Shown here one piece after another: positions 36,699 to 55,517 of a stretch of 64,000 nt of DNA. Under the pieces are notes generated by a model that was not told the origin of the DNA, did not search any database, and worked only from the letters and a program-made list of their open reading frames with translations. The DNA is from an uncultured Acidobacteriota bacterium (GTDB lineage: Bacteria; Acidobacteriota; Vicinamibacteria; Vicinamibacterales; 2-12-FULL-66-21). A program made the translations under genes and the position numbers. The stretch spans positions 151,844-215,843 of the forward strand of contig CAVOPH010000003.1 in NCBI GenBank assembly GCA_963697775.1, written 5' to 3'. Position 1 is the stretch's first letter. Each line of letters opens with the position of its first letter.

Positions 36699-37175
36699 AT
36701 GTGGGGATCACACATCATTGAGACGTGGACGTCGGTCTATGCCAACTCGAGCACGATTCGCACGCTGCTCGGATTCGCTCACGTGGCCGGATTGATTATC
36801 GGCGGAGGCTCGGCCATCGCCGCCGACCGCGGCGTGCTCCGCGCCGTTCGCCGCGCCCCATCAGAGCTCTCCGCTCATTTGACCACGATCCGCAACGCGC
36901 ACTCGATCGTCATCGCGAGCCTCGCGGTTGTAATGACGAGCGGCCTGCTGCTCGCGGCCGCCGACACCGAGACCTTTCTTCACTCGACGCTGTTCTGGCT
37001 GAAGATGGGACTCGTGGCGCTGCTCATCGTCAACGGCGCGTTCATGCGCCACGCCGAACGGGCCGCGAGCGGCGCACGACCGCTATGGACGCCGCTCGCG
37101 ATTGCCTCGGGTGCGAGCCTCGCGTTGTGGCTGCTGACGACGCTGGCGGGGGCGGCGCTGCCCAATGTCCACTGA
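36699..37175 (+). CDS. hypothetical 4-TM membrane protein
   Basis: 158 aa. The ATG lies 3 nt after the upstream stop codon and behind AGGA. Helices: LLGFAHVAGLIIGGGSAIAA, IVIASLAVVMTSGLLLAAA, LKMGLVALLIVNGAF, LAIASGASLALWLLTTLAGAAL. Confidence 0.55.
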   Translation: MWGSHIIETWTSVYANSSTIRTLLGFAHVAGLIIGGGSAIAADRGVLRAVRRAPSELSAHLTTIRNAHSIVIASLAVVMTSGLLLAAADTETFLHSTLFWLKMGLVALLIVNGAFMRHAERAASGARPLWTPLAIASGASLALWLLTTLAGAALPNVH

Positions 37176-37641
37176 CGACTGCCATCGCTGCCCGCTCCAC
37201 GACGGCACGAGCCGCCGGGTCTTCCTGCAGGAAGCCGGCGGCGGTCTGGTTGCGGCGTTTCTGGTCGCGATCACGGCGACGAACGCGACCGCGGGATCGG
37301 CCGAGAAACGCTATCCGATTCCTGCGAGCGATGGCGCCACGGTTGATCGAGACTCGCAAGTGATTCTCGTCCGCTACCAGAATCGCGTCGTCGCGCTGGC
37401 CCTGGCGTGCCCTCACCAGAACGCCGCCGTCAAGTGGCTGCCGAGCGACGGGCGGTTCCAGTGCTCCAAGCATGATTCGCGCTACACGCCTGACGGCGTG
37501 CACACGGCTGGCCGCGCCACGCGCAACATGGATCGGTTTCCGATTTCTCGCGACGGCGCGTCGGTGGTCGTCGACGTCAGCCGTGTCTTCCGATCGGATC
37601 AGGATGCCCCCGGATGGGTGGGGGCGGCCATCACAGTCTAG
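37165..37641 (+). CDS. Tat-exported Rieske [2Fe-2S] domain protein
   Basis: Twin-arginine signal TSRRVFLQEAGGGLVAAFLVAI. Rieske ligands CPHQ and CSKHDSRY. It overlaps the upstream gene by 11 nt. Confidence 0.8.
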   Translation: MSTDDCHRCPLHDGTSRRVFLQEAGGGLVAAFLVAITATNATAGSAEKRYPIPASDGATVDRDSQVILVRYQNRVVALALACPHQNAAVKWLPSDGRFQCSKHDSRYTPDGVHTAGRATRNMDRFPISRDGASVVVDVSRVFRSDQDAPGWVGAAITV

Positions 37642-40363: not shown

Positions 40364-41425
40364 TCAGCGTATTCGGACCCGAACCGAGTACTGGTCCGGC
40401 ACCGTCGCGGAACTGTTCGGCACCCGGATCGGCGGCAACTCGAACGACAGCACATCGTCCGGCCCCGGCATTGGATTTCGAGTTGTGCTGCTCCCGCTGG
40501 CACCGCTCGTCGCATCGCGATTCGGGCCGGTTGAGGAGTACCAGACCCTGCGTATTGTTGTGAAAACCAACTGCGGAGAGCCCTCGTCGGCCGTCAGCCG
40601 CAACAATCCTCTAATTTGAACATTGAGAGGTCCCGCTGCGGTGTCGACCGTGAAGGGCGAAAAGGCAAAGCCGGCGGTGTCAACCTCCCGCAATATGAGA
40701 CCTTGCAGGTTGTACTCAGGATTTTCTGGATGAGCCTTGTCGGTCCTCACCAGAAAGAGCTCGAATGTTCTCGAACTCACACCAACCATGCTGTCTGTCT
40801 TTGGCATGTGAACCAGTCGACCACCACCGCCGCCACTGCTCGCGCCTGCTCCGACGCCCGATCCTGAGCCTGAGCTTGCGCCGCCGCCAGAGGTGCCGCT
40901 CCGCATGATCGTGACCGCCGGTGATTCAGTCAGTGGTCCGGCGGGTCCGACCATCCACCCGGGTCGAGGCTCGTACCTGGCCTCGAAGCTCACTGTCCTG
41001 GCGCCGCAACCAGCGGTTGGATCCGGTGTCGCAGAATCGAGCGGTACTCGATCGCCGGGATGAAGCGTCAGTTGAATCGACGCGCCCGGTGCCGTTGTGG
41101 CCACCCCCGCACTTCGAATGCGCTGCCAGTCGACTCGGACCACCGCCTCATCGCCGGTCATCCTCTCGACCTTGCCTGAAATTCGCCAGGCATCGGTCGC
41201 TGAATCAGGAACGGGCCGGTTTCCTCCACCGATCATGCAGCCTGCAATGTACTGACGTGATTCGGTCGCAAGTGTCGTCTCGTAGGCGGCAGCTTGTGAC
41301 TTGCCATCCGGTCCATACGAAAAGACGCCGACCTGCAGCACCGGAGTGTCCGGCGATTTCGACGGGGCACCACCGGTCGCCTGCGCCGCAAGAATGAGCA
41401 GAGCGATTGAAATCGTCATTGTCAT
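40364..41425 (-). CDS. hypothetical secreted protein with a Gly/Ser-rich linker (third gene of the ECF operon)
   Basis: Signal peptide MTMTISIALLILAAQA. There are two globular halves separated by SGTSGGGASSGSGSGVGAGASSGGGGG. The start overlaps the anti-sigma stop codon (ATGA). Confidence 0.6.
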   Translation of the reverse strand: MTMTISIALLILAAQATGGAPSKSPDTPVLQVGVFSYGPDGKSQAAAYETTLATESRQYIAGCMIGGGNRPVPDSATDAWRISGKVERMTGDEAVVRVDWQRIRSAGVATTAPGASIQLTLHPGDRVPLDSATPDPTAGCGARTVSFEARYEPRPGWMVGPAGPLTESPAVTIMRSGTSGGGASSGSGSGVGAGASSGGGGGRLVHMPKTDSMVGVSSRTFELFLVRTDKAHPENPEYNLQGLILREVDTAGFAFSPFTVDTAAGPLNVQIRGLLRLTADEGSPQLVFTTIRRVWYSSTGPNRDATSGASGSSTTRNPMPGPDDVLSFELPPIRVPNSSATVPDQYSVRVRIR

Positions 41426-41859
41426 TGCCCTTCAACTTTCTCCGTCCAATTCACGCCAGGGCGAAGCGGCACTATGCGCGTTGGTCTTGGCGCCGCGCCA
41501 CTTCCGCTGAAGTCCAAAACTGTTTCCACGCTCGGCGCTGGCGCCGCCTGCACCGTTCGCTGCCCCGCCACGTATCCAGCCGTGAGGCTGACGATGATGG
41601 CCGCAGCGGCGGCCATCCACCCGAAACGGGATAGAACCGAGCGGCGCTCGCACCACTGCACCGGCGTCAGCTCTGAGAGCGTGCCTACGGACTGCCTCAG
41701 GCCGATCAGGTCGACGAGATACTCGCGCACCGCCGGGTCATCGAGGGCAGCCTTCAAAGTCGCAGGATCGACTGGCTCGCCGTCGGCGAGTGCCGCCACG
41801 GCGAGGTACGAGTACTGGTTCGGCTCGGCGCTGTCCCGCTCGCCACCATTGGTCATCAC
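41422..41859 (-). CDS. putative anti-sigma factor (single-pass membrane protein)
   Basis: 145 aa with a central TM helix (FGWMAAAAAIIVSLTAGYVAG). Its start overlaps the ECF sigma stop codon by 4 nt. The call rests on position only. Confidence 0.55.
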   Translation of the reverse strand: MMTNGGERDSAEPNQYSYLAVAALADGEPVDPATLKAALDDPAVREYLVDLIGLRQSVGTLSELTPVQWCERRSVLSRFGWMAAAAAIIVSLTAGYVAGQRTVQAAPAPSVETVLDFSGSGAAPRPTRIVPLRPGVNWTEKVEGQ

Positions 41860-42377
41860 ATCTCTCCAGGGCGGATTGGCCGCCCGTCCGATCTCCCTCT
41901 GAGCACGGATCGCAGCTGCAATCGCGCGCGGTGCAGACGCGATCTCACGGCGTCAGGCGTCAGCTGACAGGCAAATGAAATTTCTTCGTAGCTGAGGCCG
42001 CCGGCTTCGCGCATCAGGAACACATCGCGATCGACGGGGCTCAACTGATCGAGCGCCTCACGAAGCGCCATTGCCAGCGGTTGTGTGGGCGGTACCGCCG
42101 GGTCAACGGCCATCTCGACCGTCTCGCCCCGTCGTCGATCGTCTCGCACGTGGTTCAGCGCGAGATTGCGTGCGATGCGAAAGAGCCACGCGCGACGGCC
42201 CCCTTCATCGGTCTCGGGAGTCCCCGAGCGCGTGACGCGGAGAAACACTTCCTGCGTCAGCTCGCGCGCATCCTCGCTGCCGACGATGCGGCACAGATAG
42301 CGGAATATGCCGTCTCGATGCGCGATGAAGAGAACGTCGGCGTCGGCCACCAAAGGGACTCTACTCAATAAGGACAC
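41856..42377 (-). CDS. ECF-subfamily RNA polymerase sigma-70 factor
   Basis: Region 2: ARELTQEVFLRV...WLFRIARNLALNHVRD. Region 4: LSPVDRDVFLMREAGGLSYEEISFACQLTPDAVRSRLHRARLQLR. Confidence 0.88.
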   Translation of the reverse strand: MSLLSRVPLVADADVLFIAHRDGIFRYLCRIVGSEDARELTQEVFLRVTRSGTPETDEGGRRAWLFRIARNLALNHVRDDRRRGETVEMAVDPAVPPTQPLAMALREALDQLSPVDRDVFLMREAGGLSYEEISFACQLTPDAVRSRLHRARLQLRSVLRGRSDGRPIRPGEM

Positions 42378-42461: not shown

Positions 42462-44426
42462 CTACGGGCGTCCCGCGGCGAGCGCCCATGTCGGAAAGTA
42501 GGCGTGATAGAGCCGGTAGTCGAGCATGGCCGTCCCGAAGAACACGCCGTTGACGGCTCCAGCCGGCCAGGATCCATCAGGGGCCTGGAGGGATTCGAGA
42601 AGAATTCGGCCGCGGCGCATAGCGTCGCAGTCAGGGTCCCCGTACGCGAGCGCCAGGACGGCCCAGCTGGTCATCACGGGCTGTGGCTGCGTGTGCGGAA
42701 CATACCTGCCGGTGAGACAGCTGGAGTAATGCTCACCCCACCCACCGTCCTCTCGTTGCAGCGCCTTGAGCCAATTCAGCGCTCGACGAATCGCCGGATC
42801 CTGACGATCGACGCCGGCAGCACGCAGTGCCTTGACGACGTGAAAGAGGCTGTAGGTGAAACAGACACCCCACGCCGCAGGAAAACGTCCGTCTGGCAGT
42901 TGACTGCGCCGAAGGAAGGCGACCGCGGAGTTCAGAGCCGCGGCGACGCGCTGATCTCGCACGTCCGGATGCGTCCGGCGCACGGTGGCAAGGGCTTCGA
43001 TCGCTGACGCCGTGCACTCGACGTACGAATGCTCCGTCATGCAGTCGCGAAACATTTCGGACGGGTTCAGGCGATCGAGCCAGGCAGGACCGCGGCTCCG
43101 TTCGTAGGTGCTGAAGCCACCGTCGTCATTCTGTCGGGCAAGCAGAAACTCGATCGCCTGGGTCACGCGCTCGACACTCAAGTGGTCGGTATCCGGGATG
43201 AGCCCCGGTACGCGTTGCATGTCGAGGATGGCCGTCAACGCTTCGGCAGTGCAGTCGCTGACCGGCCATTGATGACGACCGTCCGAGAAGCACCACCCGC
43301 CCAGAATGGGCTCGCGGTCGTGCGCCACCTCCGCCGGCAACTCGTCACGCATCTGAGCACCTGCCAGATACGAGTGCGCGCGGCGGAGACTCGCGCACGC
43401 TGCATTCAGCGTCGGCGTCGATGTGGCGTCGGCGGGCGCAACGGTCACATCTTCGAGCAAGGCGCGCGCGGCGAACGCCGTATCCCACACCTGTGACCGC
43501 GCGCCGGCGTACCGAACACCGGCTGCGGCGTCACGCCATTGCCAGTTTTCGATTCCCTCGAGGCTGGGACCGAGATCCCGGTGCGATCGATCGCGGGACA
43601 GAATGGCCAGGCAGTTCAACAAGGCATTGACCGGCGAGAGACCTTGATATCGCGACGCATGCTGTTCGTGCAGAACTTGCTCGAAGCAAGCAGCGAGCGC
43701 CCGCTGACGCAGCCTCCGCGGCATCCACGTCAACACGACGGTCAGCGCACCGCGGAAGATCGGGAGGAGAGGAGACGGCCGGGCGTATAAATCGACGTCC
43801 GACACCTCGTCGCGATGGGCGGCAAAATCGATGCGGTCGAATTGCTCCTCGTACAACTCCGTGCGAAGCGCATCCCGCAGCGCGCCGAGGTCGGCGGTGA
43901 ATTGGCAACCATACAGATATGCCATTCCCAGATAGATGTAGCGCGTGTGGCAGTACCAGTGCCTGGGGTGAAACGGCAGCCACCGCGGCAGAAGAAACAA
44001 CTCCGGCGGCACACTTCCAACACCCTTGAAGTCATACAAGCCGACGAGTGCGAGCCAGAACTTGCCCCATGTCGGAATCGCGAGGACGCCGCCGGGCTGA
44101 CGACGGAGCCACTGCCGCGCGGGCGCGGCCAACTGATCCTCCGGCGCCACACCGAGGAGCCGCAGTGCGACGTATGCCAGCGTCGTCGTGAAGATCTGTG
44201 GCGGTCCTTCGGGATGAAGTCCCCACCCACCCTCAGCGGTCTGCGTCACCGTATAGTGCTGGCGGATCTGCGCGCGATCTCTTTCATCCAGCTCTCGTCC
44301 GGTTGCATGCCGAACGATGACGTACTGCGAGAGGATCATCGTGCACCACACGACTTCTCCTTCCCACGAGCCGTCCTCGCGCTGCAGCGAACGAAGATGC
44401 TCAATCGCGAGCTCGCCCGGATTCAA
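42462..44426 (-). CDS. oxidosqualene cyclase (lanosterol/cycloartenol synthase-type triterpene cyclase)
   Basis: Multiple QW repeats: QREDGSWEG, AEGGWGL, QNDDGGFS, QLPDGRFP, QREDGGWGE, QAPDGSWP. The catalytic motif HQWPVSDCTAEAL (Asp codon 43254-43256) is the OSC type, not the SHC DxDD type. SQVWDTAF is present. The start is uncertain: the TTG at 44426 overlaps the upstream stop codon, and the ORF is open to 44654. Confidence 0.85.
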   Translation of the reverse strand: MNPGELAIEHLRSLQREDGSWEGEVVWCTMILSQYVIVRHATGRELDERDRAQIRQHYTVTQTAEGGWGLHPEGPPQIFTTTLAYVALRLLGVAPEDQLAAPARQWLRRQPGGVLAIPTWGKFWLALVGLYDFKGVGSVPPELFLLPRWLPFHPRHWYCHTRYIYLGMAYLYGCQFTADLGALRDALRTELYEEQFDRIDFAAHRDEVSDVDLYARPSPLLPIFRGALTVVLTWMPRRLRQRALAACFEQVLHEQHASRYQGLSPVNALLNCLAILSRDRSHRDLGPSLEGIENWQWRDAAAGVRYAGARSQVWDTAFAARALLEDVTVAPADATSTPTLNAACASLRRAHSYLAGAQMRDELPAEVAHDREPILGGWCFSDGRHQWPVSDCTAEALTAILDMQRVPGLIPDTDHLSVERVTQAIEFLLARQNDDGGFSTYERSRGPAWLDRLNPSEMFRDCMTEHSYVECTASAIEALATVRRTHPDVRDQRVAAALNSAVAFLRRSQLPDGRFPAAWGVCFTYSLFHVVKALRAAGVDRQDPAIRRALNWLKALQREDGGWGEHYSSCLTGRYVPHTQPQPVMTSWAVLALAYGDPDCDAMRRGRILLESLQAPDGSWPAGAVNGVFFGTAMLDYRLYHAYFPTWALAAGRP

Positions 44427-45655
44427 TAGAGTCCCGGCACGATGCGCCAGCGGACCTTCTGGCAATACGCCTCCCAATCCTGACCGTACTTGTCCAGGCA
44501 CATCCGATGGTCGCGACGTTCGCGATGGAGCAGCAGGATCAGGAAGTAGACGATATAGAAATAGGTCAACGGATGTGAGAACCCGGTCGGCAGGCACCAC
44601 GCCAGGCCCATCAGCAGGTCGCCGAAGTAGTTCAAGTGCCTCGAGACGCCCCACCAGCCCGACGTCAGCAGGAGCGCGCCGCTTCCCGTGCGAATGTAAA
44701 CCGGCGGCCGGCCCCAGACCGGACGCGTCGGGTCGCGCCGGAACCGGTGCTTCTGAATGTTCGCGCCGCGAAAGATCAGGTACCCGGCCATGTTCAAGAG
44801 GACGATTCCAGTTGTCGCGATGAAGGACAGTTCATGCGGGTGGGTCACGAGATAGTAGGCCTGCACGGTATACATGAACGGAACCCACACCAGATCGCCC
44901 CAGCACAACATCCATCCAAACCGCTCGTGCTTGATGTCCCAGGCGGTGACGATGGCTTCCTCGTGAAAGAAGTAATCAGCGACGTACAGAAACTGAAAGG
45001 CATTCACGAGAATCATCGGCGTCGTGACGAAGCCTTGGAGCTCATACTGCTTCGCCGCACAGGAAGCATCGAGAAGCACCCAGAGCATCAGGCCGGGGCG
45101 CGCCTCACAGAAGAATTTCAGATCGAGGTGTCCAATCCGCGGGTTGAGCGACACCCCAAACACATAGCCGACGATTCCACCTTTCGCCCGCGCGGCAGTC
45201 GATCGCTCCCTCTGTGACCAGAAAACGGCCGCCGCGATCGCGAATGCGGCAATGTTTGCGGTGACCAGGAGCGGACCGAATTCGTCGTATGCGATCGAGC
45301 CGCGCACCCTGCCAGACCACACGGCCACCAGCACGATCCCGATCGTGCAGACGAACGACAGCAGCCCATTCATTCGATACTCGAGCCGCGATCCGTCGGA
45401 TAGGGGCATCCCGGTCGCGGATCGGCCGGGGACGACGAAATAGAGCGCGACCTGCAGGATCAGCCACGACACGTAAAGAAGAGTCGCCGCGACGGTGGGC
45501 CGCGGCAGGTACTGATGGAGGCCGTCGCGGATCTGCGGCGCAAGCGGAGAAACCAGCGCTCCATCGAAAAACGTCAGACACAGCCAGGAGTACCAGGCAA
45601 AGACGGGAAGACCAATCAGCATCGCCGCAGCGGACAGGCGACGATCTGCAGTCAT
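44423..45655 (-). CDS. ERG4/ERG24-family sterol reductase (C-14 / C-7 / C-24(28) type; specificity not assignable)
   Basis: About 9 TM helices. The C-terminal signature LNYFGDLLMGLAWCL...LLLHRERRDHRMCLDKYGQDWEAYC matches the sterol reductase family signature (LLHRxxRDxxxCxxKYG). ATG at 45655 (MTADRRLSAAAMLIGLPVF). Confidence 0.85.
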   Translation of the reverse strand: MTADRRLSAAAMLIGLPVFAWYSWLCLTFFDGALVSPLAPQIRDGLHQYLPRPTVAATLLYVSWLILQVALYFVVPGRSATGMPLSDGSRLEYRMNGLLSFVCTIGIVLVAVWSGRVRGSIAYDEFGPLLVTANIAAFAIAAAVFWSQRERSTAARAKGGIVGYVFGVSLNPRIGHLDLKFFCEARPGLMLWVLLDASCAAKQYELQGFVTTPMILVNAFQFLYVADYFFHEEAIVTAWDIKHERFGWMLCWGDLVWVPFMYTVQAYYLVTHPHELSFIATTGIVLLNMAGYLIFRGANIQKHRFRRDPTRPVWGRPPVYIRTGSGALLLTSGWWGVSRHLNYFGDLLMGLAWCLPTGFSHPLTYFYIVYFLILLLHRERRDHRMCLDKYGQDWEAYCQKVRWRIVPGLY

Positions 45656-45713
45656 CGGCGTCGAGATTAGCGAAGTCGTGTTTCGGTGTAAACTGCGGGC
45701 TCTCCGAGGCCCG

Positions 45714-46754
45714 ATGGCTCCCTCCGCTACCCTCGTTACCGGCGCGACCGGACACCTGGGCGCAAACCTCGTCCGGCGGCTACTGCACGAAGGCGTACGC
45801 GTCCGGGTCCTGCTGCGGCCGACGCACGACCCGCGCGCGGTTGAGGGACTCGATGTCGAGCGCGCGCCTGGCGACATCTGCGACCGCGCCTCGATCGAAG
45901 CGGCGATGGAGGGCTGCGCACGGGTTTTTCACTGCGCCGCGAAGATCTCAATCACCGCCGGCGGTGAGCGCGAGATCTACGACACTAATGTGCTCGGCAC
46001 GCGCAACGTCCTCGCGGCGGCGGCACGCGCCGGCGTCGTGCGCACGGTGGTCACCGGATCGTTCAGCGCGGTGGGCCATCATCCCGATCGCCCGAGCGAC
46101 GAGCGGGATCCGTTCAACCCGTTCGCGAAAGCACTGCCGTACGAGCGGTCCAAGGCCGCCGTTGAACACGAGTGCCTGAAGGCGGCGGTGGAAGGACAGG
46201 ATGTCGTGATCGCGATCTCGTGTGCGATCGTCGGCCCTCACGACTTCAAGCCATCGCGGATGGGCCGGGTCGTGTGCGACTTCGCGAACGCCCGAATGCC
46301 CGCGTACATTCCTGGAGGGTTCGAGTTCGTTGCCGCCCGCGACATCGTGACCGGCCATCTGCTGGCGATGGAGCGTGGACGTTCGGGTCAGCGCTACATC
46401 TTCAGCACCGAATTCGTCACCGTCGATACCTTGATGCAGTGGCTGGAAGAGATCACCGGCCAACCGCGGCCGCGGCTGCGCCTGCCGCCTGCCGTGATGG
46501 CCGCGATCGCTGAAGTGGCGAGTCCGCTGCTCACGATCCTTGCGCCACATCGTCCGCAGCGCCTGACACCTGCCGCCGTTCACCTGCTCCGAATGGGCCG
46601 GCGCGCGGACTGCTCGAAGGCGAAACAGGAACTTGGCTATCAGCCCACGTCGGTCAAGGATGCCGTGCGCGACGCGTATGAATGGTTCGTCGCCAACGGA
46701 GACATCCGAAAGGTGGCGAATCCAGCGTCAGTCACCGAGACACGGAGAGTCTGA
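45714..46754 (+). CDS. extended-SDR NAD(P)-dependent 3-beta-hydroxysteroid dehydrogenase/reductase-like enzyme (SdmB/ERG26-type candidate)
   Basis: Rossmann motif VTGATGHLGANLVRRLL. Catalytic YxxxK in PYERSKAAVE. It is the first gene of the operon that includes CYP51 and the Rieske oxygenase. Confidence 0.7.
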   Translation: MAPSATLVTGATGHLGANLVRRLLHEGVRVRVLLRPTHDPRAVEGLDVERAPGDICDRASIEAAMEGCARVFHCAAKISITAGGEREIYDTNVLGTRNVLAAAARAGVVRTVVTGSFSAVGHHPDRPSDERDPFNPFAKALPYERSKAAVEHECLKAAVEGQDVVIAISCAIVGPHDFKPSRMGRVVCDFANARMPAYIPGGFEFVAARDIVTGHLLAMERGRSGQRYIFSTEFVTVDTLMQWLEEITGQPRPRLRLPPAVMAAIAEVASPLLTILAPHRPQRLTPAAVHLLRMGRRADCSKAKQELGYQPTSVKDAVRDAYEWFVANGDIRKVANPASVTETRRV

Positions 46755-48106
46755 TGACCGATTCCCCGTCGGCGACGCTGCCTCCTCTCTTGCCCGGCGG
46801 CCTTCCCTACCTTGGACACGCGTTCGAGTTCTGGAGCCGGCCAGTCGATCTGCTTCAGGCAGGTCAACGCAGGTTCGGCAGCGTCTGGAGCTTCGTGCTG
46901 GCAGGCCAGCGTGCCACCGTGCTGACAGGGCCGGAAGGGAACGAGGCCTTTTTCCGCGCGCCGGACGATGTACTCAGCGCGCGCGACTGCTACAAGTTCA
47001 CCATTCCCGTGTTCGGACCGGGTGTGGCGTACGACGTGCCGCCCGCGGAGATGGATCGCCAGCTCGCGTTCGTCCACCCGGCGCTCAGCGACAAGCGGCT
47101 GCGCAAGTACGTCGAGGTGATGGTCGAGGAGGCTGAACAATATCTGACCACCTGGGGCGACGCCGGCGAGCGGGATCTGTTCTCGACGACGCAGGACATC
47201 ACGCTCTTCATTGCCACTCGCTGCCTCCTCGGCGACGAGGTCCGCCGCCATTGCAGCACGCGGTTCGCTCAGCTCTACCACGATCTCGACGGCGGAATGT
47301 CGATCCTCGCCTACTTCTTTCCGCATGCGCCGCTGCCAGCGTTCCGGCGCCGCGATCGCGCGCGTGATGCGGTCTATGCGCTGCTGTCGGACATCATGGC
47401 GCAGAGACGACGGAATGGAGCCGCGGCGCACGAGGATTTCCTCAGCACGCTGATGGCGTTTCGCGACGAGCATGGTGCACCCCTGTCCGACAACGTCGTT
47501 GTCGGTCTGTTGCTGACGCTCATCTTTGCCGGGCAGCATACGAGCGCGGTGCTGGCGGCGTGGACCGGCATCCTGCTGCATCAGCATCCGCACTATCTGC
47601 CGCCGATTCTGGAAGAGCAGGTTCGTGAGCTTGCCGGCAACGATCTCACCACCGAGTCGCTGAAACGGCTGGTCGTGCTCGAGCGCGCGATCAAGGAAGC
47701 CGAACGGTTACGGCCGCCGCTGGTCATGCTGATGCGATCGGTTCAGCAGCCGCTTCGCGTCAACGGCTACGAGCTGCCGGTCGGTTCGCTCGCGCTTGCC
47801 TCGCCGGCGGTCTCTCACCGCCTGCCGGCGATCTACACCGAACCCGATCGTTTCGATCCCGAGCGATTCGGCCCGGGCCGGGAGGAGGATCGCCGAGCCT
47901 CGTACTCGCTGATAGGCTTCGGCGGCGGCAAGCATCGCTGTATCGGAATGGTGTTCGCCTACCAGCAGATCAAGATCATCTGGACCAGCATCCTGCGACG
48001 ATATGACATCGAGCTCGTCGAGCGCGAGTATCGGCCCGACTACCGTACGCTCGTGGTCGGCCCCTGCCAGCCGTGCCGCATCAGATACAGAAGGAGAGCT
48101 GCGTGA
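46754..48106 (+). CDS. cyp51: sterol 14-alpha-demethylase, cytochrome P450 family 51
   Basis: CYP51 signatures: YKFTIPVFGPGVAYD (B' helix and B-C loop), LTLIFAGQHTSAV (helix I) and the haem loop FGGGKHRCIGMVFAYQQIKIIW. The overall order resembles mycobacterial CYP51. The ATG overlaps the upstream TGA (TGATG). Confidence 0.9.
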   Translation: MTDSPSATLPPLLPGGLPYLGHAFEFWSRPVDLLQAGQRRFGSVWSFVLAGQRATVLTGPEGNEAFFRAPDDVLSARDCYKFTIPVFGPGVAYDVPPAEMDRQLAFVHPALSDKRLRKYVEVMVEEAEQYLTTWGDAGERDLFSTTQDITLFIATRCLLGDEVRRHCSTRFAQLYHDLDGGMSILAYFFPHAPLPAFRRRDRARDAVYALLSDIMAQRRRNGAAAHEDFLSTLMAFRDEHGAPLSDNVVVGLLLTLIFAGQHTSAVLAAWTGILLHQHPHYLPPILEEQVRELAGNDLTTESLKRLVVLERAIKEAERLRPPLVMLMRSVQQPLRVNGYELPVGSLALASPAVSHRLPAIYTEPDRFDPERFGPGREEDRRASYSLIGFGGGKHRCIGMVFAYQQIKIIWTSILRRYDIELVEREYRPDYRTLVVGPCQPCRIRYRRRAA

Positions 48107-49209
48107 CGCCCCCGACGTTCGAACAGGCACACAATCATCGCCAGCGAGTACGCGCCGCCGGCCTCAGCCCGGACCACTGGTACCCGGTCGAATGGGAGCG
48201 GAACGTCAAGCCCGGGCAGGTCATCGACACGACGTTCTGGAACCAATCAATCGCGGTCTTCCGCGGAAAGAATGGATCGCTCTATGCGGTTGAAAACCGC
48301 TGCGCGCATCGCCAGCTGAAACTCTCGCTGGGTGAGGTCGGCGACTGCACGATCACGTGCGGATACCACGGGTGGATGTACGACGGCGAGGGGCGATGCA
48401 CGCAGATGTTCCACGATCTCTTCGGTCACACGTTTCCGCGGCTGAAGATCGCGTCGTTTCCGGTCCAGGCGCGGCACGGGCTCGTCTGGATCTTTCCCGG
48501 GAACCCGGCGCTGAAAGACGAGCGGCGTATCCCGGACATTCCTGAACTGGAACAGGCTCGACCGTGGGGATCCATCGCGATCGATTTCACGTGGCGCGCG
48601 CACCACTCGATGATCATCGACAACGTCAGCGACTTCACCCACGCCTACCTGCATCGCAAGAGCAAGCCGTTCACCGATGCGAAGCTCACGATGATGGAGC
48701 CGCAGGCCGACCGCGTGCTGCTCGCGTACGACACGAAAGTCGGCCAGGGACGAATCTCAGGATTGTTCGTCGATCGAAAGCGGACGAACACGAATGCGAT
48801 GACGCTCGCCTACGAGTATCCGTATCAGTGGTCCAACACCGACGACAAGATCAAGCACTGGTGCTTCGTGCTGCCGATCGACGGCGAGACCACGCGGGTG
48901 TTCTTCATCTTCTATTTCAGCCATGAAATGCTGAAGGTGCCGCTGATTCCGCTGCGAATGCCGCGGCCGCTCATCCGCGCAATCATGGCCGCGTCAAAAC
49001 GGCTGCTGGTCAAACCGCTGCTCGAAGAGGACGGCGTCGCGGTCGAAGCCGAACAGGAAGCGTGGCGAAAGCATTACGAACAGCCGATCGCAGAACTGAA
49101 CCCTGCAGTCCATCAATTTCAGCAGCTGACCATCCGCAAGTGGGAGGAGCACCTGGCGCGATCGGTGAAGCCGAGGGCCGCTACTTCCGCTCCAGCTCTC
49201 TCCGGCTGA
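48103..49209 (+). CDS. Rieske non-haem iron oxygenase, SdmA-like (candidate sterol C-4 methyl oxidase)
   Basis: GTG start overlaps the CYP51 stop codon (GTGA), 6 nt after AAGGAGAG. Rieske motif CAHRQLKLSLGEVGDCTITCGYHGW. Mononuclear iron motif DNVSDFTHAYLH. Confidence 0.75.
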   Translation: MTPPTFEQAHNHRQRVRAAGLSPDHWYPVEWERNVKPGQVIDTTFWNQSIAVFRGKNGSLYAVENRCAHRQLKLSLGEVGDCTITCGYHGWMYDGEGRCTQMFHDLFGHTFPRLKIASFPVQARHGLVWIFPGNPALKDERRIPDIPELEQARPWGSIAIDFTWRAHHSMIIDNVSDFTHAYLHRKSKPFTDAKLTMMEPQADRVLLAYDTKVGQGRISGLFVDRKRTNTNAMTLAYEYPYQWSNTDDKIKHWCFVLPIDGETTRVFFIFYFSHEMLKVPLIPLRMPRPLIRAIMAASKRLLVKPLLEEDGVAVEAEQEAWRKHYEQPIAELNPAVHQFQQLTIRKWEEHLARSVKPRAATSAPALSG

Positions 49210-50018
49210 AGTCCTCCTCCTTCAAGCCAATGTTGTAGTGGACGTTGGTCATCGACAGCTCGGTGTGCGTCCGGGCACTCACGTCGGTCATGACGATCTC
49301 TGACAGCGTCCAGATCGATTGCACCAGATCCAGCCGCTTCACCTCGTAGACCTTTTCCTTCTCGTTGCGCCGATTGTAGATGTCCGCGTGCACGACGACG
49401 AAAGTGTCCTTCCGCACCGTCGAGACGACGCGTGGAAATCGCGCCTGCACATTTTTTGCGCGGGATTCGATTCGGTACACCGGTACCGTCTTGCCGTCAG
49501 GCCCGGCCCACGTGCCGTTCGGTTCAACCATGGTGTAGGTGTAGTCGTCGAGTTCGCGACCGCTGATGTCTTCGTAGGTAAAGTCGCTGCCGACGAAATT
49601 ATCCTGAGCTTCCGCGCCGGTAATCCTCCGCACCCGTCCCAGCGCCGGGCAGATAGAGGAACCGCTCGTCCTCCGAATCGGGGTGCTCCCACACCAGGAA
49701 CGCGGTGCCCTTGATGTCGTTCGGGTAGGTGAAACGAATCAGGATTCGATCGCCGGCATCGGTACCTTTGGCGGCTCCTCTGGCCTGCGGTCTCATCGTC
49801 TGAATCGACAATTCTCGTTCGCGGACCCGCTGCTGCCGATCGAACAGTCGCATCTTCAACTCGAAGCGGCCGTCTTTCCCGATGTCGCGATTGTCGGCCT
49901 GCCGGGCCACCCATTCCGCCGTTTCCGGTTGTGGCACCCTGGACACGGCATCTACGTAATACAACGGCAGCAGGCATGGAATCATCGCCAGGGCGAAACG
50001 TGCGCGGCACGTGACCAT
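49181..50018 (-). CDS. LolA-like outer-membrane lipoprotein-sorting family protein; frame interrupted near 49640-49650
   Basis: ILIRFTYPNDIKGTAFLVWEHPDSEDERFLYLP is followed in the adjacent frame by LGRVRRITGAEAQDNFVGSDFTYEDI...VKRLDLVQSIWTLSEIVMTD. This is the family's YLPalkrvrRI core. N-terminal signal MVTCRARFALAMIPCLLPL. Confidence 0.75.
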
Positions 50019-50094
50019 GGCCGGCGATCTTCGCCTCCCGCAAGGGAAAAGGCAAAGGGCAAAATTAAAAATCAGGCCGAAGGATATTGGCGTT

Positions 50095-51462
50095 ATGCTC
50101 AAAGCCAGTCCCGCCGTGGATGTCGAGTACGACATCGCAATCGTCGGTGCCGGCTTTACCGGCGCATTTGCCGCCGCCGCGCTTGCCGACGGCTATCGCC
50201 GCATCCTCGTACTGGACGCGCATCCCGAAGGCCGACCGCAGTTCGGCGGTGAACTGATCCACGCCGCCGGCGTGGACATCCTGATCAACCTCAAACTCTG
50301 GCCGATTCTTCAGCACGCGTCCGGCGAGCGCATTGACGGGTTCCACGTCAGCTCCGACGCCGGCGACCCGCCGGTCAGGCTTCCCTACCGCGACGTGCCG
50401 GCGCTGCGTCCCGGCGGCCTCGCGATCGAGCACCGTCAGATCGTCTCACGCGCTCGCGAGCATCTCGGGAGCCGACCGGGCGTGGACGTTCGCACGGGGC
50501 AGCGAGTCATCGACGTCATCTGGCGTAACGGTCGCGTCGCCGGCATAAAGACGGCGTCCGGCGAGCAGATCGGCGCCACGTTGACGCTGATCGCGGACGG
50601 AAGACACTCTCGCACGAGACGGGCGATCGGGATTCGGGCCCGGAAGCGCACCGTGTCGCTGAGCGCGATCATCACTGCCGAACACCAGTCCCTGCCGGAA
50701 CCGCGCTACGCCTGTATCTGTCTGGGCGCACCCGGCCCCAGCCTGGCCTACGGACTGCGCAATCGGGATGTCCGGTTCTGCATCGACGTGCCGATCACCG
50801 ACAATGTCACACGCGAGCACGTCGCCTCGCGACTTCGCAAGGAATATGCACCGCGACTCCCCAATCCGCTCCGGGCGCAGCTGCTGAGCGCGCTCGATGC
50901 GGGGCCGGTGGAGCTCTGCGGCAACGACATCGTCCAGACAGATCGGTGTACCGTCCCCGGCGCAGCCCTCATCGGCGACTCCGCCGGCTGTTCCCATCCG
51001 CTGACGGCGAGCGGGATGACCAACAGCCTCAATGACATTCGCATTCTGTCCGACGAGTTGCGCGCCGGTTCCACGCTCGATGAAGCGCTGGCCCGATACG
51101 AGGTGCGACGCTATCGATTCGTTCGGATCCGCGAGATTCTTGCGGAGGAGCTGTACCAAGCGTTCAGGGCAGAAGGCGCCGGCGAGCGCGCAATCCGCAC
51201 GGGGATCTTCCGCTACTGGCGCACGAGCGCGCATGGCCGCGCGGCGACCGTCGCGCTGCTCTCGGGCGACGATGCGCGTCTCAGTACCTTCGTCGGCGAG
51301 TACCTGCGCGTGATGCGCGAGTCGATCCACGGTACAGTGCTGCGTCCGAAGAGCGATTCGTCCCTGCGTGGTCGCGCACACTCGCTGGCAGGGCTGCTCA
51401 AGGAGTCGCTGGATCTGCTGAATCGCGTCAGCGCCGGCGTCTACACCGGCACCGTGAGATAA
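50095..51462 (+). CDS. squalene monooxygenase (squalene epoxidase)
   Basis: FAD fingerprint DIAIVGAGFTGAFAA. Motifs FGGELIHAAG and LIGDSAGCSHPLTASGMTNSLNDI, the latter corresponding to the epoxidase motif hPLTGGGMTV. Confidence 0.8.
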   Translation: MLKASPAVDVEYDIAIVGAGFTGAFAAAALADGYRRILVLDAHPEGRPQFGGELIHAAGVDILINLKLWPILQHASGERIDGFHVSSDAGDPPVRLPYRDVPALRPGGLAIEHRQIVSRAREHLGSRPGVDVRTGQRVIDVIWRNGRVAGIKTASGEQIGATLTLIADGRHSRTRRAIGIRARKRTVSLSAIITAEHQSLPEPRYACICLGAPGPSLAYGLRNRDVRFCIDVPITDNVTREHVASRLRKEYAPRLPNPLRAQLLSALDAGPVELCGNDIVQTDRCTVPGAALIGDSAGCSHPLTASGMTNSLNDIRILSDELRAGSTLDEALARYEVRRYRFVRIREILAEELYQAFRAEGAGERAIRTGIFRYWRTSAHGRAATVALLSGDDARLSTFVGEYLRVMRESIHGTVLRPKSDSSLRGRAHSLAGLLKESLDLLNRVSAGVYTGTVR

Positions 51463-51517: not shown

Positions 51518-52672
51518 TCACTTCCCCCGGGCCCTACCTTCTCCCGATACAGACGACGTGGTCAGCGCCGACCCTATTGCCCAGGTTGCAATGCGGCGAA
51601 GGCGCGGGCGCTCGTAGATGCGACCGATCGCGTCGAGCACCCCGACTCTCACGGCACCGCGAAACGCATGTCCCATCAGGAACCCCGGGACAAATGCGCC
51701 CCGGCAGCGCTTGGAATACCCCTGCCATGCGTTCGACTCATCCACTCCGCCCTGAACGACTTGCGCGAGCGTCTCGGCGGCGAGCACTCCGCAGCGCATC
51801 GCCTGATAAATCCCTTCACCCGTCGCGGCGTTGGTGAGCCGCGCGGATTCGCCGACATACAGAATCCCCGGAGCCGCCACCGCCTGTGGCCAAACCGAGT
51901 GCGCAATCGGGTGTCCGGACCATCGGCCAATCGTTCGCGCCGGCCGGAGGCGATCACTGTAGTGGCGCTGAAGAAACGATTCGAAGACGGGACGCAGGCT
52001 TCCCAAATCACCGCCGCTTCCTGCGCGCCTCCCGTCCACGACGATGCCGATGTTGACGCGTGACGGAGTCTCGGGAAACATCCAGCCGTACAGCGGGCAC
52101 AGCGCTCGATCGAAGATCATCTCGAGCGTGCCTGGCTCGAATTCGAACCCCTCCCACCAGCCCATGATCGTGGCCAGCGCCTGTTTCGGCCGCGAGTCTT
52201 GCGAAAATCGCGAATGGGCGCCGTCTGCGCAGATGACGTAGTCGGCCGCGATGACTTCATCGCCGGCGCGTACGCCCGCAACCCGGCCGCGGTCATGAAC
52301 CAGCGCGGTGACCTGTACGCCATCACGAAACTGGACACCGAGCGTCCGCGCGCGATCGACGAGAAGTTGATCGAAGTCTCTGCGCAGCAGCACAACCGCC
52401 GCCTCGCCGCCAGAGAGACGCAACGTGCGCCCGCCTGGAGTCGTCAGGAGCAACGAGTGGATGGTGTAGGCCCGTGCCCGGATCGCGTCCTCGACAGCCA
52501 GGTCGGCGAGGACCCGCAATCCGAGCGGGGAGATCGCCGAGCCGCAGGTTTTCTCTCTCGGGAAACGCGCGCGATCAAGAAGGATGACGTGCTGAAACCC
52601 GCGTCGGGCAAGCGCGATTGCGGCGGCACACCCGCCAGGTCCGGCGCCGACGATGACAATCCGGTCAGCCAC
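51518..52672 (-). CDS. geranylgeranyl-reductase-family FAD-dependent oxidoreductase
   Basis: GTG start. Dinucleotide fold IVIVGAGPGGCAAAIALARRG...LLDRARFPREKTCGSAISP. The ~380 aa length is typical of the family. Confidence 0.75.
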   Translation of the reverse strand: MADRIVIVGAGPGGCAAAIALARRGFQHVILLDRARFPREKTCGSAISPLGLRVLADLAVEDAIRARAYTIHSLLLTTPGGRTLRLSGGEAAVVLLRRDFDQLLVDRARTLGVQFRDGVQVTALVHDRGRVAGVRAGDEVIAADYVICADGAHSRFSQDSRPKQALATIMGWWEGFEFEPGTLEMIFDRALCPLYGWMFPETPSRVNIGIVVDGRRAGSGGDLGSLRPVFESFLQRHYSDRLRPARTIGRWSGHPIAHSVWPQAVAAPGILYVGESARLTNAATGEGIYQAMRCGVLAAETLAQVVQGGVDESNAWQGYSKRCRGAFVPGFLMGHAFRGAVRVGVLDAIGRIYERPRLRRIATWAIGSALTTSSVSGEGRARGK

Positions 52673-52733
52673 GATGTTGGCGCTCGCGAGTCCGCGGTCT
52701 CCAGGATCCAGAGCGGAGCGCTATAGTATCGCC

Positions 52734-55517
52734 GTGCAGGGCCTCGTCCAACGACTTCTCCTCTGGAGCGTCAGGCGTCCAGCCGCCGGGGCGCTGCTCT
52801 ACATCGCCCTGACCGTGGGGTTGACGTCAGCGATCCCGCGACTCCAGATCGACGCCTCCAACGAAGGCTTCATGCTCGAGCGCGACCCTGCCCGTCAGTA
52901 CTACGAGCAGGTCAAGGGTACGTTCGGCAGCGACGAGCTCACGGTCGTCATGATCACGGCAGGCGATGTCTTTACGCCTGCGGCGCTGAAGACGATCGAG
53001 CGGCTATCCGACGCATTGCAGCGTGTCGAAGGGGTCGCTCGCGTAGACAGTCTCGCCACCGTGGACAACATCGGCGCCACCGACGAAGGAGTTGAAATCG
53101 CGCCGCTGCTCCGCGGCGGCATCCCGGAGGATCCGGCCGGACTGGCGGTGCTCAAGCGGAAAGCGCTCGCCAATGACATCTTCACGGGCAATCTCGTCTC
53201 GCCGGATGCCCGCGCGGCAGGCATCTTCGTCTACACCCAGGCGAGCGACGGCGACAAGACATTCAACGCGAGATTCTCGTCGCGGGTCGAAGATCTCATC
53301 CGCGAGAACCAATCCGCCGGTGTCGTGGTCGAGCAGATTGGCGGGCCGCTCATCAAGGCGACGGTGGCGGACTTCGTCCGCCGCGATCAGCTCACGTTGA
53401 TCCCGTTCTCGGTGGCCACGCTGTTCGTCGTGCTCATGCTCGGGTTCCGGACGCCGCAGGGCGTGATCGCGCCGCTCTTCACCGGGTTGTCGAGCGCGCT
53501 CTGGGGCGTGGGCCTGATGGCGCTTTTCCACATTCCCTTGAATGTGGTCACCGTGGCGGTTCCCTCGCTGGTGCTCGTGGTCGGATTCGCCGAAGCGGTG
53601 CACATCATCTCGGCGTATCACGCGTGCCTGCGCGCCGGCCGCGACAAGATACACGCGCTGACCGAAGCGGTTGAAGAGGCCGCGCTGCCGGTGCTCGTCA
53701 CCACGGCCACGACGATTCTTGGATTCGCGACGCTGATCTTTTCCGACATCACGATCCTCATCCAGTTCGGGTACGCCGCAACGCTGGCGTTGACGGCGAA
53801 TTTCATCGCCACGCTGCTCGGGATCCCGTTGCTGCTGCGGCTGTGGCCGCAGCCGAAGAGATTTGCGGCCACCGTGCTGGCAGAGTCGACGCCGGGTAAC
53901 GCCGTCGATCGGCGAATCGCCTCGGGCTGCGCGTTCGTGCTCCGGTATCGTGTGCCGATCGCGGCGCTCTTCATCGTGCTGGCGATTGCCTCCCTGTGGG
54001 GCTGGTACACGCTCAAGGTGGACACCGATTTCGTCAGCTACTTTCCGCGGAATTCGCCCGTCCGTCAGCGCATGCACGACGTCGATCAGGCCCTGAACGG
54101 CGCCTCGGCCTTCTTCGTCGTCGTCGAAACCGGCCGCGAGAACGGCGCCACCGATCCCGGCGTCCTGAGACAGGTGGCGGAGCTGCAGACGTTTCTGGAA
54201 GGCGTCCCCGGCATCGGGAAGACGGTGTCGATCGTGGACTACATCTCGCAGCTGAATACGACGCTCAGCGGAGTTCGCGTCGGCGCCCGCGCGGTGCCCG
54301 ACTCTTCGGAGCTGATTGCGCAGGATCTGCTGCTGATGGATCGCACGCAGATCGCACGGTTCATCGATCTGCCCGCGACCTCAGCGAACATTCTCGTCCG
54401 TCACAGCCTGACCGGTTCGTGGGAGCTGTCACAGGCGCTCCGTCAACTCGATGCCTACGTGGCGGGGCACGTTCGCGGCGTCGCGGTGCAGGCGTCGGGG
54501 CAGTCGGTGCTGACCAACCGCGCCGCCGACTACATGGCCGTCAACGAGGTCACGAGCTTCGTCTACACGCTGGCGATCATCGGGCTGATTCACTCGGCGC
54601 TGTTCCTGTCGGTGAAAGCCGGACTGCTGTCGCTCGTGCCGAACGTCATTCCCGTGATCTACAGCTTCGGCCTCATGGGGCTGCTCGACATTCCGCTGAG
54701 CACGGGCACGGCCATGGTGGCGACGATTGCGATAGGCATCGCGGTGGATGACACGGTCCACAACATGGTGACCTACAGCCGTCAGCTGAACCAACACGCT
54801 GACGAGCGGACCGCGGTGGTCCGGACCATGGCGATTCAGTTCAGGCCGATCGTGTTCGTTTCGATGGCATTGGCGAGCGGCTTTGCCGTGCTTGCATTCT
54901 CCCGTTTTGTCCCAACCGTCCATCTCGGCCTGCTGTCCGCTTTCGTGATGGTCGCGGCGATGATCTCGGAGCTCGTGCTGTCGCCGATCCTGATGGCATC
55001 GACGCGGCTGGTGACGGTCTGGGACATGCTGCTCGTGCGCATGAATCCAGACCTCGTGCGCCGGGCGCCGCTCTTCGAAGGCCTGTCGCGCTGGGAAGCG
55101 CGAAAGGTTGTCCTCACAGGAATGCTCCAATCGCTGGCGGCTGGACAGTACGCGATTCAGCGCGGCGACCAGGGACGGCATCTCTACATGGTCGTCGCCG
55201 GCCGTCTGATCGTGGTCGATTCGGATCTCGACGGCCGCGAACGCACGTTGTCTGTCGTCGGCCCAGGCGGCGTGTTCGGTGAAACGGGATTGTTGACCGA
55301 TGGCTATCGAATGTTTTCGGCCCGGGCCGAGACGGCAGCGGAGGTCCTGCGGATGGATTTCGACACACTCGATCGGTTGCGACGCCGGTTCCCCTTCACC
55401 GCGGCCAAAGTCTTCAGGAACCTCGCGCGCATCCTCGGCGAGCGGCTTCAGGACACCACGTCAGCGATGCTGTATCTCACGAGCGACACCGCACCGCGCG
55501 TCGAGCAGCAAAAGTAA
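52734..55517 (+). CDS. COG1033/MMPL (HpnN-like) RND-superfamily exporter fused to a C-terminal cyclic-nucleotide-binding domain
   Basis: There are two 6-TM bundles with periplasmic loops (IDASNEGFML...DSLATVDNI; second half VDTDFVSYFP...). The C-terminal ~125 aa (about 55060-55450) carry FEGLS...LYMVVAGRLIVV...GPGGVFGETGLL...ARAETAAEVL. The start is uncertain: GTG at 52734 or ATG at 52674. Confidence 0.8.
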   Translation: MQGLVQRLLLWSVRRPAAGALLYIALTVGLTSAIPRLQIDASNEGFMLERDPARQYYEQVKGTFGSDELTVVMITAGDVFTPAALKTIERLSDALQRVEGVARVDSLATVDNIGATDEGVEIAPLLRGGIPEDPAGLAVLKRKALANDIFTGNLVSPDARAAGIFVYTQASDGDKTFNARFSSRVEDLIRENQSAGVVVEQIGGPLIKATVADFVRRDQLTLIPFSVATLFVVLMLGFRTPQGVIAPLFTGLSSALWGVGLMALFHIPLNVVTVAVPSLVLVVGFAEAVHIISAYHACLRAGRDKIHALTEAVEEAALPVLVTTATTILGFATLIFSDITILIQFGYAATLALTANFIATLLGIPLLLRLWPQPKRFAATVLAESTPGNAVDRRIASGCAFVLRYRVPIAALFIVLAIASLWGWYTLKVDTDFVSYFPRNSPVRQRMHDVDQALNGASAFFVVVETGRENGATDPGVLRQVAELQTFLEGVPGIGKTVSIVDYISQLNTTLSGVRVGARAVPDSSELIAQDLLLMDRTQIARFIDLPATSANILVRHSLTGSWELSQALRQLDAYVAGHVRGVAVQASGQSVLTNRAADYMAVNEVTSFVYTLAIIGLIHSALFLSVKAGLLSLVPNVIPVIYSFGLMGLLDIPLSTGTAMVATIAIGIAVDDTVHNMVTYSRQLNQHADERTAVVRTMAIQFRPIVFVSMALASGFAVLAFSRFVPTVHLGLLSAFVMVAAMISELVLSPILMASTRLVTVWDMLLVRMNPDLVRRAPLFEGLSRWEARKVVLTGMLQSLAAGQYAIQRGDQGRHLYMVVAGRLIVVDSDLDGRERTLSVVGPGGVFGETGLLTDGYRMFSARAETAAEVLRMDFDTLDRLRRRFPFTAAKVFRNLARILGERLQDTTSAMLYLTSDTAPRVEQQK

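Follow-up and report, generated by a model that had tools for sequence, protein, structure and literature searches.

The sterol C-4 demethylation pair SdmAB was, according to later papers (PMC10202945, PMC6385002), first described in 2018 (Lee et al. 2018, PNAS), and acidobacteria are listed among the bacteria that possess genes for both C-14 and C-4 demethylation (PMC10202945). The literature that we searched contains no experimentally shown sterol production in Acidobacteriota. Bacterial sterol synthesis bears both on the reading of sterane biomarkers and on the origin of sterol synthesis in eukaryotes. Here we analyse a 64-kb stretch of DNA from an uncultured, probably soil-dwelling Acidobacteriota bacterium (the window), in which positions 45714-49209 of the plus strand carry homologues of sdmB and sdmA with a gene for the sterol 14-alpha-demethylase CYP51 between them. 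These genes very probably constitute a three-gene operon, sdmB-cyp51-sdmA, situated within a complete cluster for de novo sterol biosynthesis.

The most similar characterized system is the 21-kb cluster of Calothrix sp. NIES-4105, of which the SdmAB proteins removed both C-4 methyl groups of lanosterol in E. coli (Lee et al. 2023, Nat Commun, PMC10202945). The Calothrix locus (L051 in our comparison) resembles the window in its order sdmB ... cyp51-sdmA, in the presence of an oxidosqualene cyclase gene nearby and in having no redox partner gene; identity to the corresponding window protein is 60% for its SdmA, 60% for its SdmB and 57% for its CYP51. It differs in belonging to another phylum with low GC content, in having its genes set apart by spacers instead of overlapping, with 24 nucleotides (nt) between cyp51 and sdmA and about 600 nt downstream of sdmB, and in carrying additional methyltransferase and flavin adenine dinucleotide (FAD)-oxidase genes. 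The window has, unlike Calothrix, a divergent pair of genes for an ERG24-type reductase and the cyclase, a LolA-like gene, and a gene for an MMPL transporter with a cyclic-nucleotide-binding (cNMP) domain.

In Methylococcus capsulatus the C-4 position is likewise processed by a Rieske oxygenase and a decarboxylase/ketoreductase of the short-chain dehydrogenase/reductase (SDR) type, and a soluble bacterial CYP51 is present (PDB 6mcw, 379 bits to the window protein). There, however, sdmA and sdmB lie in a putative operon with the transporter genes bstABC and not with cyp51, the CYP51 chain, described as a fusion of demethylase and ferredoxin, has 551 amino acids as opposed to 450 in the window, and only one C-4 methyl group is removed (PMC10202945). 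Most methanotrophs use an 8,14-reductase of the NTF2 family, whereas the window encodes an ERG24 protein. Enhygromyxa salina has homologous SdmA and SdmB proteins in a pathway that also includes CYP51 and a C-14 reductase, but its genes are dispersed and it requires a second reductase, SdmC, reported to be restricted to Nannocystaceae (PMC10202945); the window encodes a single SDR of the SdmB type. Further away are the class IA alpha-3 Rieske oxygenases (DdmC/DdmAB, KshA/KshB, carbazole dioxygenase), which share with SdmA the architecture of a Rieske and a VanA_C-type domain and the absence of a beta subunit. DdmC (69 bits) and KshA (44 bits) are among the nearest solved structures and are very distant. 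Such systems normally encode a reductase or ferredoxin beside the oxygenase, while the window and the 83 related loci described below have none nearby.

The enzyme families, the order of the genes and their presence in acidobacteria are thus already reported or visible in public genomes, and the window leaves the overall picture unchanged. Modestly new, and outside the core, are the conserved footprint of a putative bidirectional promoter, a conserved convergent overlap with the LolA-like gene, and the presence of an MMPL-cNMP transporter where other clusters have BstABC. The window is a well-preserved acidobacterial example of SdmAB combined with eukaryote-like CYP51 and ERG24 proteins, a probable C-24 reductase of the Bsr type and transporters that differ from the Methylococcus BstABC system. 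In practice it is useful as a candidate for expression in a heterologous host, which could reveal if SdmAB from an acidobacterium takes off one C-4 methyl group or both.

Families were assigned by Pfam and NCBIfam profile scans and, for solved structures, by phmmer searches of the PDB. A scan of species-representative genomes for SdmA relatives gave 462 loci, 80 of which were compared for gene order; three metagenome contigs bring the related loci to 83. The closest relatives of the window cluster are an Acidobacteriota metagenome-assembled genome (L001) and these three contigs, L081, L082 and L083, which have the layout of the window.

The first gene, sdmB (45714-46754, +), encodes a homologue of NAD(P)-dependent sterol C-4 decarboxylase/3-ketoreductases of the extended-SDR type with 346 amino acids. 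It is followed by cyp51 (46754-48106, +), for a sterol 14-alpha-demethylase of 450 amino acids that consists of the heme domain alone, without a fused ferredoxin, and by sdmA (48103-49209, +), for a 368-residue homologue of Rieske-type 4-methylsterol monooxygenases. All three genes are intact and full length. They lie on one strand with stop/start overlaps and with a Shine-Dalgarno sequence inside each upstream gene, which is the pattern of a coupled operon. sdmB starts with ATG at 45714, preceded by GAGG at 45706-45709, and ends with TGA at 46752-46754, of which the last nucleotide is the first of the cyp51 ATG (46754-46756). As read from the sequence, this junction (46744-46756, +) comprises a Shine-Dalgarno sequence GGAGAG at 46744-46749 and the 1-nt overlap TGATG at 46752-46756. 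At the second junction (48090-48106, +) the Shine-Dalgarno sequence GAAGGAGAG occupies 48090-48098, and the GTG start of sdmA (48103-48105) and the TGA stop of cyp51 (48104-48106) form the 4-nt overlap GTGA at 48103-48106. The cores GGAG (46744-46747) and AGGAG (48092-48096) each lie 6 nt upstream of the start that they precede, and the stop codon of sdmA is at 49207-49209. The initial annotation had described the same three genes and both overlaps, and every coordinate was correct on re-reading.

The assigned starts agree with the homologues. CYP51 chains in the PDB align from residue 5 of the 450-residue protein, and gene calls in relatives give 445-449 amino acids for CYP51, 368 for SdmA, 347 for SdmB and 409 for the ERG24 protein. 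Longer in-frame starts upstream, at 46682 and 48073, fit neither the alignments nor the lengths of the homologues and were rejected.

The assignment of the P450 is straightforward. The 56 best PDB matches of the protein are all CYP51 enzymes, from bacteria, protists, fungi and human, with scores of 214-379 bits. The best is M. capsulatus CYP51 (7jj1/6mcw; E 4e-112, 379 bits), followed by the Mycobacterium tuberculosis enzyme with 318 bits and the human and protist enzymes with about 250-310 bits, as against 145 bits for the first match outside the family, CYP120. The family is recognized by the signature YxxF/LxxPxFGxxVxF/YD in the B'-helix/B'-C loop, GQHTS in helix I and the heme-binding FxxGxHxCxG. 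The window protein has these signature and heme-cysteine motifs as YKFTIPVFGPGVAYD, AGQHTS and FGGGKHRCIG. The protein is therefore a CYP51, as had been proposed, and by family membership its predicted function is 14-alpha-demethylation.

For the Rieske protein the NCBIfam SdmA model (NF052579) gives E 3.6e-116 and 388 bits, and the next NCBIfam family, an aromatic dioxygenase subunit, 39 bits. The nearest solved Rieske oxygenases (DdmC, SxtT, carbazole dioxygenase, NdmA/B and KshA) reach at most 69 bits. Clustering of this protein with aromatic-ring or other dioxygenases, which the initial annotation had named as evidence against its reading, is not borne out by these scores. Pfam detects Rieske and VanA_C domains. 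The Rieske motif CAHR-x16-CGYH, encoded at 48301-48369, fits the pattern CxH-x(15-17)-CxxH, and DNVSDFTHAYLH aligns with the iron-site helix of DdmC, with residues that are invariant in 20 homologues. The closest proteins, 98 and 94% identical, are metagenomic, and the identity of 60% to Calothrix SdmA extends over residues 2-356. The SDR has the SdmB model (NF052578) as its top family with E 8e-110 and 368 bits. Its translation contains the motifs TGATGHLG (TGxxGxxG) and YERSK (YxxxK), Pfam finds Epimerase and 3Beta_HSD domains, and the orthologues in L001, L081 and L082 are 79-85% identical. By profile scores and motifs the two proteins are homologues of the SdmA and SdmB types, in agreement with the initial annotation, and they are as SdmA- and SdmB-like as the Calothrix proteins.

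The gene order is widely kept. The arrangement sdmB-cyp51-sdmA is found in about 30 of the 80 genome loci and in at least seven lineages, including Acidobacteriota (L001, L004, L040), Gemmataceae (L010), many Rokubacteria/Methylomirabilota, Streptomyces (L062, L066), cyanobacteria such as Calothrix NIES-4105, a Polyangia metagenome-assembled genome and an alphaproteobacterial one. sdmB lies within 10 kb of sdmA in 69 of the 80, mostly immediately upstream or with only cyp51 in between, and in most loci a gene for oxidosqualene cyclase, CYP51, ERG24 or squalene epoxidase lies within the same distance of sdmA. Other orders occur as well: gammaproteobacterial loci read sdmB-sdmA-ERG24-cyp51-squalene epoxidase-oxidosqualene cyclase, and Nannocystis has cyp51-sdmA with sdmB not adjacent. 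The best match of the window SdmA in a genome is the L001 protein (83% identity), and the SdmA proteins of the three contigs are 77-79% identical. Over the parts that overlap, these contigs agree with the window gene for gene, including the LolA-like gene, the epoxidase gene, the gene for a geranylgeranyl reductase (GGR)-like flavoprotein and the MMPL-cNMP transporter gene. Because the order is widely kept and the junctions are short or overlapping, the operon is well supported; the initial annotation likewise read it as such, and a common strand, the lack of any intergenic gap and the retention of the order across phyla agree with this.

Two variations on the layout were observed. In L082 a gene of the ERG2/sigma-1-receptor family, for a putative sterol C-8 isomerase, lies at 3942-4499 (-), placed between the divergent promoter region and the C-14 reductase gene. 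No ERG2-type gene is present at this place in the window. Rokubacteria/Methylomirabilota clusters contain between cyp51 and sdmA a second, divergent SdmA paralogue that is 38-47% identical to the window SdmA (L017 8934-9980, L020 9087-9995, L028 9087-9968, L029 8892-9953, L061 8853-9926). In such a cluster the paralogue and SdmA may each act on a different one of the two C-4 methyl groups.

A separate issue is what the overlaps mean for translation. Stop/start overlaps of 1 and 4 nt are the commonest gene junctions of compact bacterial operons, and they often support termination-reinitiation. The initial annotation took them to imply stoichiometric co-expression. The overlaps are real, but fixed stoichiometry overstates what they imply, since each internal start has a strong Shine-Dalgarno sequence of its own, since the spacing between cyp51 and sdmA varies in close relatives, and since in many lineages cyp51 sits outside the sdmB-sdmA pair. 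The overlaps could instead be a mere product of genome compaction, with cistrons that are transcribed together but translated independently, and without coupling, fixed stoichiometry or a complex of CYP51 with SdmAB. We consider this a serious possibility, although we would not bet on it. It agrees with the canonical AGGAG and GGAG sequences before both internal starts and with the occurrence of 4-nt overlaps in other gene pairs of the window (41422-41425 and 41856-41859, in open reading frame (ORF) coordinates). At the second junction the window shares its overlap of -4 nt with L081 and with several loci from Rokubacteria, Bryobacteraceae, Gemmataceae and Streptomyces, but the spacing is +46 nt in L001, +22 nt in L082, +49 nt in L083 and 5-50 nt in cyanobacteria, so at this position no selection on overlap or stoichiometry is visible in the sequences. 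The placement of cyp51 outside the pair in gammaproteobacterial and many myxobacterial loci points in the same direction. What speaks for coupling is that most high-GC relatives have preserved an overlap of -1 or -4 nt between sdmB and cyp51 and that such overlaps commonly favour termination-reinitiation.

The operon and the reductase gene, which has its ATG at 45655 on the minus strand, are separated by 58 bp (45656-45713). This distance, given in the initial annotation, was confirmed, and the divergent arrangement recurs in L001, L081 and L082. The region contains a bipartite footprint, ATTAGC-N15-GGTGTAAACT, at 45666-45694, upstream of the sdmB Shine-Dalgarno sequence. With the consensus ATTA(G/T)(C/A)-N14/15-GGTGTAAA(C/A)T it occupies corresponding positions in L001, L081, L082 and the window, between flanks that have diverged, and it is confined to the divergent region of these four loci, being found nowhere else in the 83 loci or in the window. 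Read on the minus strand, the boxes give TTTACA-N15-TATAAT in L081 (N14 in L082), with GATAAT in L001 and GCTAAT (45671-45666) in the window as the second element. From there to the start codon of the reductase or ERG2 gene the distance is 10-18 nt, which would leave a very short leader or none. On the plus strand, TAAACT (45689-45694 in the window; TAAAAT in L081) is located 17-24 nt before the sdmB ATG, at 19 nt in the window. The region may thus contain overlapping, oppositely oriented promoters that use both boxes. The earlier proposal that one short region serves both transcription units is therefore plausible with respect to the conserved footprint, but it did not gain from a search for consensus promoters, which is discussed below. 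As a regulon signal GGTGTAAACT was rejected: with up to two mismatches it has 15 sites in the window where 14.6 are expected, and none of them lies upstream of other sterol genes. Predictions showed no excess of internal promoters or terminators; terminator-like sites numbered 6 against 3.8 +/- 2.0 expected, with none at the gene boundaries of the operon.

Both CYP51 and SdmA need an electron source. In line with the initial annotation, no ferredoxin or ferredoxin reductase came up in the 64 kb, either in Pfam searches with about 50 of the ORFs or when all six frames were scanned for Fe-S motifs. This is the norm among the related loci: scans for Fe-S and ferredoxin reductase (FNR) motifs found no linked partner in any of the 83 apart from an extension of the Minicystis rosea CYP51, and the other motif matches were off-frame, arginine-rich junk ORFs. 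In that organism (L015) the CYP51 has, at the downstream end of the match at 13494-14777, an 84-residue C-terminal extension with a ferredoxin-like motif of the 3Fe-4S type, CQGHAAC...CP, which resembles the CYP51-ferredoxin fusion of Methylococcus. SdmA homologues are active in E. coli, and the words ferredoxin, 'redox partner' and 'electron' are absent from the text of the paper that reports this (PMC10202945).

Two window proteins were considered as partners and rejected. One, which might have served SdmA as a Rieske-type ferredoxin, is a small Rieske-domain protein of 158 amino acids (37165-37641, +) and the sole further Fe-S candidate in the window. It carries the twin-arginine signal SRRVFL, shows only weak PetC/AioB-like (arsenite-oxidase small-subunit) matches and is absent from the related loci, and on these grounds it is most likely exported and unrelated. 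Its gene overlaps that of a DUF6644 membrane protein by 11 nt (36699-37641, +). The other is the GGR-like flavoprotein, as a ferredoxin reductase; it belongs to the TIGR02032 family and has the YxWxFP motif of sterol C-24 reductases.

The neighbouring genes surround the operon on both sides. The divergent unit is headed by a gene for a sterol C-14 reductase of the ERG4/ERG24 family (44423-45655, -), with 410 amino acids, a Pfam ERG4_ERG24 match over residues 8-410 (E 1e-123), orthologues in L001 and L082 that are 62-66% identical, and homologues that align from residue 1-5. The oxidosqualene cyclase gene follows at 42462-44465 (-), with a probable TTG start at 44465 after GGGAGG. Its 5' end overlaps the 3' end of the reductase gene by 43 nt, exactly as in the gene calls of L082. 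The cyclase scores 825 bits with TIGR03463 (cut-off 851) and 496 bits with TIGR01787 (cut-off 322.7), and its DCTAE motif is intact. In the motif RHQWPVSDCTAE it has H and V at the product-diagnostic positions. We take the His to be as in cycloartenol synthases and the Val as in lanosterol synthases, and from such mixed residues the product (lanosterol, cycloartenol or parkeol) is not predictable.

Downstream, the 3' boundary of the operon is marked by a convergent gene of the LolA_like/TP_0789-like family (PF17131; 49181-50018, -). The 3' ends of sdmA and this gene overlap by 29 nt (49181-49209), as they do in L082 (8050-8078) and L083 (2664-2692). No terminator is predicted at the 3' end of sdmA, where folding is not significant (z = -1.1). 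The ends of the two transcripts would be mutually antisense. Next comes the squalene epoxidase gene (50095-51462, +), which lies outside the operon and starts at ATG 50095 or GTG 50116; it has a Pfam SE match (E 5e-31) and orthologues in L082 and L083 that are 67-69% identical. The gene for the GGR-family flavoprotein (51518-52672, -) scores 164.9 bits with TIGR02032 (cut-off 158.8), contains YGWMFP as its YxWxFP motif and recurs in sterol clusters of several phyla. A GGR-family bacterial sterol C-24 reductase with the YxWxFP motif, Bsr, was described in 2025 (PMC12004948), and the window flavoprotein is probably a Bsr-like reductase. The last of these genes (52653-55517, +) encodes an HAE3/MMPL transporter of the resistance-nodulation-division (RND) superfamily with 954 amino acids, in which Pfam finds MMPL, Sterol-sensing, Patched and cNMP_binding matches and which scores 175 bits with the NCBIfam HAE3 model. 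It combines a sterol-sensing-like domain with a C-terminal cyclic-nucleotide-binding domain and is kept, with 67% identity, in the acidobacterial clusters L082 and L083 and, with about 50%, in those of Rokubacteria. Possibly it exports sterols under the control of cyclic nucleotides and in partnership with the LolA-like protein. Neither protein corresponds to a Bst component: as BstA the transporter scores 32 bits against a cut-off of 1400, and BstC is all-helical and resembles tetratricopeptide repeat (TPR) proteins, unlike the LolA-like protein.

The functions of these families suggest a possible pathway. Squalene epoxidase and oxidosqualene cyclase would produce a protosterol of the lanosterol or cycloartenol type. 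CYP51 would then remove the 14-alpha-methyl group oxidatively, and the ERG24-type reductase would saturate the resulting delta-14 bond. SdmA, as a Rieske non-heme-iron monooxygenase, would convert a C-4 methyl group stepwise to a carboxylate, after which the NAD(P)-dependent SdmB would catalyze decarboxylation and then re-reduction of the 3-ketone. Saturation at C-24 would probably be carried out by the Bsr-like flavoprotein. The three operon genes would be transcribed jointly from a promoter in the 58-bp region and their translation coupled or coordinated via the 1- and 4-nt overlaps, while CYP51 and SdmA would receive their electrons from ferredoxin and reductase proteins whose genes lie in other parts of the genome. 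One can go further and propose that this bacterium makes fully processed sterols, demethylated at C-14 and C-4 and saturated at C-24, that the placement of cyp51 reflects a functional demethylation module, that the P450 and the Rieske oxygenase share a single unlinked electron chain, and that a compact bidirectional promoter, ATTA-N15-GGTGTAAACT, controls the module together with the cyclase-reductase pair. This wider proposal is speculative, and we regard it as rather doubtful as a whole.

Several observations weigh against a functional operon in a complete sterol cluster. A sigma-70 consensus promoter scan of 44300-50300 found no promoter-like site, and in the minus-strand promoter reading the spacer of 14-15 nt is short. 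The redox partners have no nearby gene, which makes activity hinge on unlinked genes. The scores of SdmA and SdmB fall below the NCBIfam equivalog cut-offs of 600 bits each, and the frameshift in the LolA-like neighbour could reflect either sequencing errors in the window or decay of the cluster. With regard to the cut-offs, the name of the SdmA model ends in 'Mthl', which we take to stand for Methylococcales, and the Calothrix NIES-4105 proteins provide a control: their SdmA scores 392 bits and their SdmB 348 bits. Because these fall short as well, the 600-bit cut-off is judged to reflect lineage rather than function.

The frameshift lies near 49647, where ctgcccGgcgctggg apparently contains one extra G, and Pfam matches of the LolA-like gene are accordingly in two frames. 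Intact orthologues of 284-289 amino acids (L082 8050-8919, L083 2664-3518) span the frame switch ...FLYLP|ALGRVRR, and either an assembly indel or a pseudogene would account for it. In a rival reading, the entire cluster would be a decaying or inactive remnant from which the operon yields no demethylated sterols. The frameshift, a gene resembling those of pyrroloquinoline quinone (PQQ)-dependent dehydrogenases (56419-58810, -), seemingly split into two ORFs, and the lack in the window of the ERG2-type isomerase found in L082 would fit such decay. However, sdmB, cyp51, sdmA and the genes for ERG24, oxidosqualene cyclase, squalene epoxidase and the GGR-like protein are all full length. The catalytic motifs checked in sdmB, cyp51, sdmA and the GGR-like gene are intact, as is DCTAE in the cyclase. 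Single-base indels are equally explained by assembly error, and L081, from the same clade, is full of them. A defunct cluster is therefore improbable. Least probable, and already largely refuted, is that the SDR is an HpnA-like hopanoid-associated sugar epimerase/reductase and that the substrate of the Rieske protein is something other than a sterol: the HpnA model ranks second for the SDR with 288 bits, the HpnA cut-off is unreached like that of SdmB, and homologues of the Rieske protein are often labelled 'phenylpropionate dioxygenase-like' in source annotations, but SdmB exceeds HpnA by 80 bits (similarly in Calothrix, with 348 against 246 bits), the Rieske scores given above favour SdmA over aromatic dioxygenases, in dozens of loci sdmA and sdmB travel with genes for oxidosqualene cyclase, squalene epoxidase, CYP51 and ERG24, and neither a squalene-hopene cyclase gene nor other hopanoid genes are adjacent. 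The assignment to a sterol operon is accordingly preferred.

Other features of the window were noted besides the sterol genes. On the same strand as the cyclase gene and 84 nt downstream of it, a unit at 40364-42377 (-) consists of a gene for an extracytoplasmic function (ECF) sigma factor (41856-42377) followed by ORFs of 145 and 353 amino acids without family matches, joined by successive 4-nt overlaps. As a conserved regulator of the sterol genes, the sigma factor with the putative anti-sigma factor (41422-42377) was rejected, being absent from the related loci. The two PQQ-dehydrogenase ORFs mentioned above overlap, cover profile positions 1-136 and 187-343 and include a cytochrome c domain; they may represent a second frameshift and hint at assembly indels. 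An ADOP-family duplicated permease (15292-17733, -; TIGR03434, 675 bits) and an acidobacterial-type von Willebrand factor A (VWA) protein (26356-28437, -; acidobact_VWFA, TIGR03436, 166 bits) each exceed the cut-off of their NCBIfam model. Together with L001 as the best genome match, they indicate that the DNA comes from an Acidobacteriota bacterium. The sole Rfam match of the window is a tRNA at 11993-12065 (+).

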